This document shows, piece by piece, positions 244 to 611 of a DNA stretch of 21,213 nucleotides. How positions within the stretch are numbered: position 1 is the first letter of the stretch; every line of letters begins with the position of its first letter. The DNA comes from a virus (Duplodnaviria; Heunggongvirae; Uroviricota; Caudoviricetes). A program made the translations under genes and the position numbers. The notes beneath the pieces are model-generated. The model had not been told where the DNA came from and did not search any database. It saw only the letters and a program-made list of their open reading frames with translations. The DNA is taken from IMG/VR virus record IMGVR_UViG_2534681774_000019, positions 1-21,213 of that record; one strand, given 5' to 3'.

Positions 244-435
244 TCAGTTTTCCTTATTAATGCGACAGTGGTTTTTCCAGCGGTTTTGCGCCGCGCTGGG
301 CTTTTTGCAAAAACCACAATCCATCATCCCGTAATATTTCATCAACCCCATCCGTCGGTTGCTGAGTCTCACCCACTGCCAGACGCCAGGAGCGTTTCTA
401 CGAACTAACAGAATCTTTGCTTTACGGTTTTTCAT
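244..435 (-). CDS. small basic protein (63 aa), paralog of 432..611
   Basis: ORF track 244..435. Start ATG 435..433 overlaps the stop TGA 434..432 of the upstream paralog (ATGA). Lys/Arg-rich; N-terminus MKNRKAK and C-terminal AAQNRWKNH match the neighbour. Confidence 0.45.
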   Translation of the reverse strand: MKNRKAKILLVRRNAPGVWQWVRLSNRRMGLMKYYGMMDCGFCKKPSAAQNRWKNHCRINKEN

Positions 436-611
436 CTTACTGCGTACCCTTTCTTCCGCCTGTTCTGTGACGCAGTAGGCTTACGCTTTGCGGCAAAAGC
501 CACCTGACCAAATAATGGATGGATTACCGCTATCTTATGGTTGCTAATAACCAGCTCCACCACACGCACAGGCCGCTGTAAAAAAAGTCGTTTTGCCTTA
601 CGGTTTTTCAT
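432..611 (-). CDS. small basic protein (59 aa), paralog of 244..435; below the ORF-track length cutoff
   Basis: Manual translation: ATG 611..609 preceded by AGGAGAG; product MKNRKAKRLFLQRPVRVVELVISNHKIAVIHPLFGQVAFAAKRKPTASQNRRKKGYAVR. The first 17 nt of coding sequence are near-identical to ORF 244..435. Confidence 0.4.
   Translation of the reverse strand: MKNRKAKRLFLQRPVRVVELVISNHKIAVIHPLFGQVAFAAKRKPTASQNRRKKGYAVR

Follow-up and report, generated by a model that had tools for sequence, protein, structure and literature searches.

Tandem genes for small basic proteins in the early-left operon of lambdoid prophages and their probable remote relationship to the 30S-binding protein Sra

The stretch of viral DNA analysed here comprises 21,213 nucleotides (nt) and represents positions 1 to 21,213 of IMG/VR virus record IMGVR_UViG_2534681774_000019 (Caudoviricetes); the whole of it is referred to below as the window. 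The window is part of a lambdoid Escherichia coli prophage, and its left end is the minus-strand early-left operon. There, two adjacent minus-strand open reading frames (ORFs) encode small basic proteins of the same family, phrog_1380. ORF A (244..435) encodes 63 amino acids (aa), with an isoelectric point (pI) of 11.1, and is the terminal copy of the array. ORF B (432..611), the upstream or internal copy, encodes 59 aa with a pI of 12.0. We analysed the paralogy of the two genes, the organization of their arrays in related phages, and a probable remote relationship of the family to the bacterial protein Sra.

The two genes meet in an ATGA overlap at 432..435, which contains the stop codon of ORF B and the start codon of ORF A on the minus strand. 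Their beginnings carry a 21-nt direct repeat, TTTGC(T/C)TTACGGTTTTTCATC, one copy of which lies at 416..436 (head of ORF A, codons 1-7 on the minus strand) and the other at 592..612 (head of ORF B), with 95% identity between the copies and a spacing of 176 nt. Both proteins begin with MKNRKAK and carry the C-terminal motif K-P-(S/T)-A-(A/S)-Q-N-R-(W/R)-K. In ORF A this motif is found within codons 45-56 (K-P-S-A-A-Q-N-R-W-K-N-H, 268..303, minus strand), and in ORF B within codons 44-54 (K-P-T-A-S-Q-N-R-R-K-K, 450..482, minus strand), where it has the tail form of internal copies. A central motif, (L/I)-S-N-(R/H)-(R/K), is also common to the two proteins, appearing as S-N-R-R at codons 25-28 of ORF A (352..363, minus strand) and as S-N-H-K at codons 23-26 of ORF B (534..545, minus strand). 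The adjacency of the two ORFs, their lengths, their overlap and their shared ends had been reported in a preliminary description made from the sequence alone, and all were recovered. That description had also placed one of the genes below the cutoff of the ORF track; this is ORF B, whose 59 aa fall short of the 60-aa default.

Alignment of the two proteins by BLASTP covers 55 residues, of which 36% are identical and 60% score as positives (pairwise E = 3e-8), and the global nucleotide alignment of the two genes scores 8.4 standard deviations over base-shuffled controls. Both match the phrog_1380 profile, with residues 1-61 of ORF A on positions 1-61 of 62 (E 9.2e-39) and residues 1-59 of ORF B on positions 1-60 of 62 (E 6.9e-24). 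The similarity therefore covers the N-terminus, the centre and the C-terminus and is not confined to the first codons. Paralogy of A and B, as proposed in the preliminary description, is borne out by the full-length alignment, by membership of one PHROG family and by the three conserved motifs in common. In an alignment of 21 family sequences, the invariant positions (ORF A numbering) are M1-A6, L9, S25, N26, Q50, N51, R52, K54 and R58. The S and N of the central motif, invariant in the close family alignment A1, become near-invariant when divergent members are added.

For the analysis of selection, about 165 related loci were gathered from viral contigs, and 87 distinct gene sequences were extracted. 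The ratio of nonsynonymous to synonymous polymorphism (pN/pS) in the annotated frame was 0.21, 0.35, 0.43 and 0.28 in four subtypes, of which the ORF A subtype has the value of 0.21 and ORF B that of 0.35. Four of the other five frames gave 0.66-3.9. In the antisense frame whose wobble positions coincide with those of the annotated one, three subtypes yielded 0.23-0.47 and the fourth 0.77; low values are to be expected there as an artefact. Invariant residues are encoded by alternative synonymous codons (Asn by AAC or AAT, Lys by AAA or AAG, Gln by CAA or CAG, Ser by AGC or AGT, and Arg by CGC, AGG, AGA, CGA or CGT), and this variation rules out the wobble-sharing antisense frame. ORF B homologues carry amino-acid substitutions. 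It is the proteins that selection keeps, not the DNA or RNA. Since the invariant residues use different synonymous codons, A and B are real genes and real paralogs, and their status as real coupled paralogs is, in our judgement, nearly certain.

These data also bear on the idea that the real products are small hydrophobic membrane peptides read from the plus strand opposite the junctions (..FALRFFI(L/A)LL..), resembling type I toxins, and that the minus-strand ORFs are their mirror image. The plus-strand ORFs 359..478 and 541..690 do read as hydrophobic and helix-like, and the wobble-sharing antisense frame is also low in pN/pS. Yet these ORFs extend only 25-55 codons from stop to stop, vary in length and contain ATG in no locus, while substitutions silent on the minus strand are radical on the plus strand, converting Arg codons CGC/AGG to Ala/Pro and Ser codons AGC/AGT to Ala/Thr. 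A scan of the region found no promoter-like or terminator-like sites within 244-784, and the minus-strand genes, with their ATGA overlaps and Shine-Dalgarno sites, have the layout of an operon. The hydrophobic plus-strand ORFs merely mirror sense codons rich in Lys, Arg and Asn, and antisense peptides as the true products are hardly credible.

Translation signals were found for both genes. A scan of the 30 nt upstream of the ORF A start revealed a Shine-Dalgarno-like purine-rich stretch, GGAAGAAAGGG, at 447..457 (minus strand), within the 3' end of ORF B. The Shine-Dalgarno-like AGGAG for ORF B lies at 621..625 (minus strand), within the 3' end of the next gene upstream, ORF C (608..784, minus strand), which in turn overlaps the start of ORF B by ATGA at 608-611. 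A, B and C are each preceded by a Shine-Dalgarno-like run of purines that lies within the gene upstream. The conserved ATGA stop/start overlap together with such a site inside the upstream gene is the arrangement by which coupled operon genes are recognized, and judged from these sequence signals the array fits translational coupling. Programmed frameshifting at the A-rich start region ATGAAAAAC was also considered; it was dismissed by eye, without computation, as the upstream frame reaches a stop codon first.

Among the related loci, about 90 have a single family gene, about 70 have a pair and one has a triple, and the spacing within arrays is -4 in every one of the about 70 multi-gene arrays examined. 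B-type copies are always located upstream of an A-type copy, and A-A pairs occur too. Internal copies, which are followed by another family gene, end in ..QNRRKKGYAVR, and terminal copies end in ..QNRWKNH, regardless of body type (loci L007-L164). In terminal copies, the few residues after QNRWKNH supply the next gene with its ribosome-binding site. Since the type of tail is set by position in the array and not by the type of body, recombination within the conserved tail/head junction is indicated, and this is the simplest account of the duplication, loss and body swapping of family genes. Of 155 family loci, 122 have ORF C upstream of the array.

It could be argued from the same organization that the head and tail are kept as DNA recombination linkers shuffling lambdoid modules, with the ORFs being incidental. 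Head and tail are conserved far more than the bodies, tail type tracks array position, frame-shifted junction remnants are present upstream of some single copies, and in two ORF A variants, P0042 and P0045, a frame-shifted middle returns to frame. This explanation is largely refuted by pN/pS values of 0.2-0.4 in the annotated frame and by differing synonymous codons at invariant residues, including CGC, AGG and AGA for Arg; moreover, divergent members from other phage types keep the protein motifs at different spacing. We consider it very unlikely. Junction recombination probably occurs alongside protein function, not in its place. As to P0042 and P0045, in which the middle section is in another frame and the sequence is back in frame before the C-terminal motif, each comes from one assembly contig, and they may stem from faulty sequencing or from double frameshifts that are tolerated.

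The head and central motif of the family are similar to those of Sra of E. coli (RpsV, "ribosomal protein S22", PF08136 SRA_like), and this likeness prompted a comparison. The sra gene is chromosomal and belongs to the bdm-sra operon. The protein binds the 30S subunit tightly, and its role is still unclear (PMC10502375; PMC9959377). Comparison of the family alignment with 13 Sra sequences by hhalign gave a score of 24.4 (P 1.1e-4, probability 56.6%), with the S-N-R-R motif of ORF A aligned to I-S-N-Q-R of Sra; none of 400 column shuffles reached this score, the maximum being 19.8. When a hidden Markov model (HMM) of the family was searched against 7,887 six-frame phage-locus ORFs, Sra sequences were the top non-family matches (E 0.02-0.7).

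Searching viral contigs with the Sra alignment revealed a prophage ORF from a group that connects the two and is referred to here as the bridge; its proteins combine an Sra-like head and central motif with a K-P-S..R-Q-K-R-K tail. This ORF passes the gathering score of the Pfam SRA_like model (25.5 against 25 bits, E 1.7e-5); other bridge members scored 21.7 and 16.4 bits or gave nothing. Bridge relatives were found in 28 viral contigs, in Enterobacter, Citrobacter and Salmonella genomes and in the Serratia phage vB_SspM_BZS1 (p43). The loci of the group (L170, 3001-3201; L172-L198; L199, 2441-2710) are all annotated as hypothetical. In one of them, L173, the bridge gene follows an ORF for a TraR/Orf73-like zinc-finger protein, a reading made by eye from the translation, and precedes xis/int, which is an exo-xis-like position.

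The bridge group matched Sra in hhalign with a probability of 95.2% (P 2.8e-8; shuffle maximum 16.7) and the family with a probability of 96.1% (P 2.8e-9; shuffle maximum 20.4), the latter match extending over 52 columns and including the K-P-S..Q tail. The same 30 residues at the start of the bridge are used in the two alignments, and a chimeric protein is therefore no explanation for the Sra link. Three out of four additional bridge members had phrog_1380 as the sole match among 38,880 PHROG profiles (E 0.26-1.4, full length). An HMM built from Sra and bridge sequences only placed phrog_1380 ORFs at ranks 1-29 of the 7,887 ORFs, with a best E of 0.019. Six other small basic proteins used as controls scored 6-10.6. 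Taken from these profile comparisons, true homology of phrog_1380 and Sra is probable.

Several results weigh against this relationship and against what might be concluded from it. While E. coli Sra matches PF08136 with 108 bits, none of A, B and 21 other family members did so at E <= 10 (gathering cut-off 25 bits), and with the same limit A and B matched no further model of Pfam or NCBIfam. The Sra HMM alone, searched against the six-frame phage ORFs, did not raise the family above decoys. The direct match between the family and Sra spans some 30 residues in which N, R and K abound and would not be significant at database scale; the link hangs on one intermediate group, and the E-values of single family members against the Sra and bridge HMM were modest (0.02-1.5, HMMER). 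The conserved C-terminal SAAQNRWKNH is without a clear counterpart in Sra, and no solved Sra structure was present in the copy of the Protein Data Bank (PDB) searched. Finally, because the function of Sra is itself unclear (PMC10502375), being "Sra-like" predicts 30S binding and little more.

Much of this would be expected if A and B were real accessory-phage paralogs whose likeness to Sra arose by convergence of short basic motifs, and whose role is non-ribosomal, such as coating of DNA or the nucleoid, action as a small toxin or blocking of a host defence. The lack of SRA_like matches for A and B, the failure of the Sra HMM to part the family from decoys, the direct match of 57% probability and the conserved C-terminal motif missing in Sra all agree with convergence, and tandem duplication with fast-changing bodies is also typical of genes engaged in phage-host arms races. 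On the other hand, the same 30 N-terminal residues of the bridge underlie its matches of 95-96% to Sra and to the family, reciprocal searches select only each other among 24,736 Pfam and 38,880 PHROG models, and composition-matched controls score far lower. Besides, the matches begin at residue 1 in all three groups, and the order of the motifs is kept. We therefore regard convergence combined with a non-ribosomal role as rather unlikely.

The structure of the protein was predicted with AlphaFold2. With a diverse alignment, the model comprised a helix (residues 4-11), three strands (20-23, 28-32 and 38-43) and a second helix (48-61), with a predicted local distance difference test score (pLDDT) of 82 and a predicted template modelling score (pTM) of 0.51. 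The first helix and the first two strands cover the segments aligned with Sra, and the C-terminal motif of ORF A opens the predicted C-terminal helix. Two results do not favour the Sra-lineage interpretation: a shallower alignment led to an all-helix model (pLDDT 66), and the better model had no match among solved and predicted viral structures beyond the family itself. Since the model changes with the alignment, the prediction should be read with care. A fold of the alpha-beta-beta-beta-alpha type, like that of double-stranded-RNA-binding domains (dsRBD) or HicA, was suggested by the order of elements but is not supported, as no three-dimensional match to a solved dsRBD or HicA was found.

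Each of the two proteins has 16 Lys and Arg residues and only 1-2 Asp and Glu residues, in accordance with the Lys/Arg-rich composition noted in the preliminary description. As in that description, we infer nucleic-acid binding from the charge, now strengthened by the remote relationship to the 30S-binding Sra. Binding of ribosomes or RNA as the specific function of A and B is suggested by sequence resemblance and remains tentative, with somewhat less than an even chance in our estimate. The broader interpretation, in which A and B are tandem diverged phage paralogs forming a remote branch of the Sra lineage and are likely early binders of RNA or ribosomes, appears evenly balanced between being right and wrong.

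If this interpretation is correct, ORFs C, B and A and the next downstream gene would be transcribed on one minus-strand message, and since each start codon overlaps the previous stop codon, ribosomes would probably be handed from gene to gene. The two family genes each encode a very basic protein of about 7 kDa with three conserved elements separated by freely varying stretches: the N-terminal head M-K-N-R-K-A-K-x-L-L, a central hydrophobic strand ending in S-N-R/H-R/K, and the C-terminal tail K-P-S/T-A-A/S-Q-N-R-W/R-K. Arrays could expand, contract and exchange bodies via recombination in the conserved tail-plus-head junction. For a remote phage-borne branch of the Sra lineage, the likeliest activity would be binding of ribosomal or other structured RNA, which may be contacted by the S-N-R turn together with the basic head and tail. 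Acting early after infection or induction, the proteins might alter the use, stability or upkeep of host ribosomes, and the two copies may target different sites or act jointly. A still wider proposal is that lambdoid, Stx (Shiga toxin) and P1-like phages of enterobacteria carry a diversified and frequently duplicated family of early-expressed ribosome binders of the Sra type that reprogram or preserve ribosomes, and that Sra is a shortened domesticated phage copy; we consider it doubtful.

The array in the window lies in the early-left (pL-side) accessory region. ORF C encodes a protein of 58 aa (pI 12.0, phrog_13831) that ends with AARRAAKRRRRAKR and is under purifying selection (pN/pS 0.30). 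It was examined as a third family member and rejected, since hhalign against the family gave P 0.55 and its sequence is unrelated to those of A and B. Directly upstream of ORF C lies an Ead/Ea22-like gene (784..1272, minus strand; PF13935, E 4e-31), which, according to the annotation of relatives, is a marker of the early-left (exo-xis) accessory region. On the other side, a gene of phrog_1714 (3..242, minus strand), cut by the window edge, starts 1 nt past the ORF A stop; the gene at this position downstream of the array differs from phage to phage. In window positions 1-2000, no Rfam covariance model matched at E <= 1. In relatives, int and xis are followed by small ORFs and the Ea22-like gene, then by genes for a LexA-family repressor, Rha, replication and Q, and then by a tRNA cluster and lysis genes.

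An insertion sequence of the IS21 family (1919-3699, minus strand), consisting of istA with an rve domain and istB with an IstB_IS21 domain, is inserted in the early-left operon, and a second Ea22-like ORF (1269-1883) adjoins it. This element is apparently missing from close relatives, the best full-window match consisting of two pieces with 87% coverage. Its position between the early promoter region and C, B and A means that the expression of these genes may be disturbed in this prophage. In the distal part of the window, three tRNA genes are clustered at 17368-17617 on the plus strand (a Met-type tRNA with anticodon CAT, Arg TCG and Arg TCT). The same tRNA arrangement is present in a relative, NZ_AP022298.1, downstream of the Q and methyltransferase genes, with the first tRNA being annotated as Ile.

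The genes are widespread. The 751-nt region around A and B has at least a partial match in 1,435 of 5,426 complete E. coli genomes and a match with at least 80% coverage in 39. A tblastn search with ORF A matched 146 of 50,697 phage records, which by organism name belong to E. coli and Salmonella phages and include 933W, VT2-Sakai and other Stx phages, HK225, phiV10 and P1-like phage-plasmids. In lambdoid phages, the family is located between Ea22 and xis/int, and the lambdoid-prophage setting assumed in the preliminary description is correct. Prophages of E. coli and Salmonella with identical or near-identical proteins number in the hundreds. When 1.8 billion representative proteins were searched exhaustively by profile, only 47 matches were obtained. 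Divergent members keep N-R-K-A-(K/R)-x-L-L, (R/K)-(I/V)-S-N-R-(R/K) and S-A-A-Q-N-R-W-K-N-H with variable spacers, and the two that were traced both reside on phage contigs of other types. A profile scan of genome contigs with the family alignment confirmed one 228-bp contig. The host range of the family given here rests on phage and viral collections and on source names.

In existing annotation, these proteins bear no functional names. The exact ORF A sequence was found in 132 contigs, labelled "hypothetical protein", and in public collections the exact proteins are called "hypothetical protein" or "prophage protein"; the RefSeq entries are WP_000797278/279 and WP_000797289. RefSeq always annotates A, while B is an unannotated gap in some genomes and WP_000797289.1 in others, the loci of inconsistent annotation being L004 (2786-2956), L005 (2695-2865) and L006 (3482-3658). 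The original record of 933W contains L0068, an ORF in another frame that overlaps the family gene. Scans of A, B and C against Pfam and NCBIfam gave no match, a Pfam scan of 23 family members gave scattered chance matches only, and a search of PDB sequences with the family profile found none. No description of ORFs A and B or of phage homologues of Sra was found in the literature searched. Thus, the genes, the family and the tandem pair are already known or common, and the finding as first described is ordinary. The relationship to Sra appears to be unreported, with all bridge and family proteins annotated as hypothetical.

What lifts the interest is that a family of medically important Stx phages (933W, VT2-Sakai) appears to be related to Sra, an abundant protein whose function has been without an answer since 2001 and whose origin has lately been ascribed to de novo birth. 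In a preprint, Sra was proposed to have been born de novo within Enterobacteriaceae, and such factors were described as tending to shorten over time (10.1101/2025.11.04.686544). If the relationship holds, it would offer an alternative origin for a host hibernation factor, given that the phage family is longer and more diverse and has the same motifs as Sra. It would also provide a candidate route for temperate phages to act on host ribosomes, and co-sedimentation with ribosomes would be a cheap and concrete test for "dark matter" early phage genes.

Compared with known systems, A and B are ordinary members of phrog_1380, whose 62-position profile they match end to end and to which no function, Pfam model or structure is assigned. 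With Sra they share small size, a very basic character and occurrence in enterobacteria or their phages, as well as the M-K-(S)-N-R-x-A-(K/R)-x-(I/L)-L head from residue 1 and the (K/R)-(I/V)-S-N-(R/Q)-(R/K)-x-(I/V)-V motif in the same order. In contrast, Sra is a single-copy, stationary-phase-induced protein of 45 aa encoded on the chromosome, whereas A and B have 59-63 aa and are encoded in tandem in an early-left operon of a prophage; they have a longer spacer from the head to the S-N-R motif and the SAAQNRWKNH tail that is missing in Sra. The bridge group resembles A and B in the three-motif layout, M(K/N)(S/N)NR(Q/K)ARRL(L/I)G .. AKPS(P)RQKRKAK, and in its placement among small ORFs upstream of xis/int, but its proteins are longer (66-89 aa), are single-copy in the loci seen, have another C-terminal extension and are closer to Sra. 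The small proteins of the exo-xis region (Orf60a, Orf63, Orf61, Orf73/TraR-like, Ea22 and Ea8.5), which adjust host physiology or the choice between lysis and lysogeny (PMC8614690; PMC3824215), share with A and B the same operon and early expression from pL. They have no sequence relationship to A and B, which are located in the variable part downstream of ea22, where the genes of Stx phages vary in number and kind and include full or partial gene duplications (PMC8614690).

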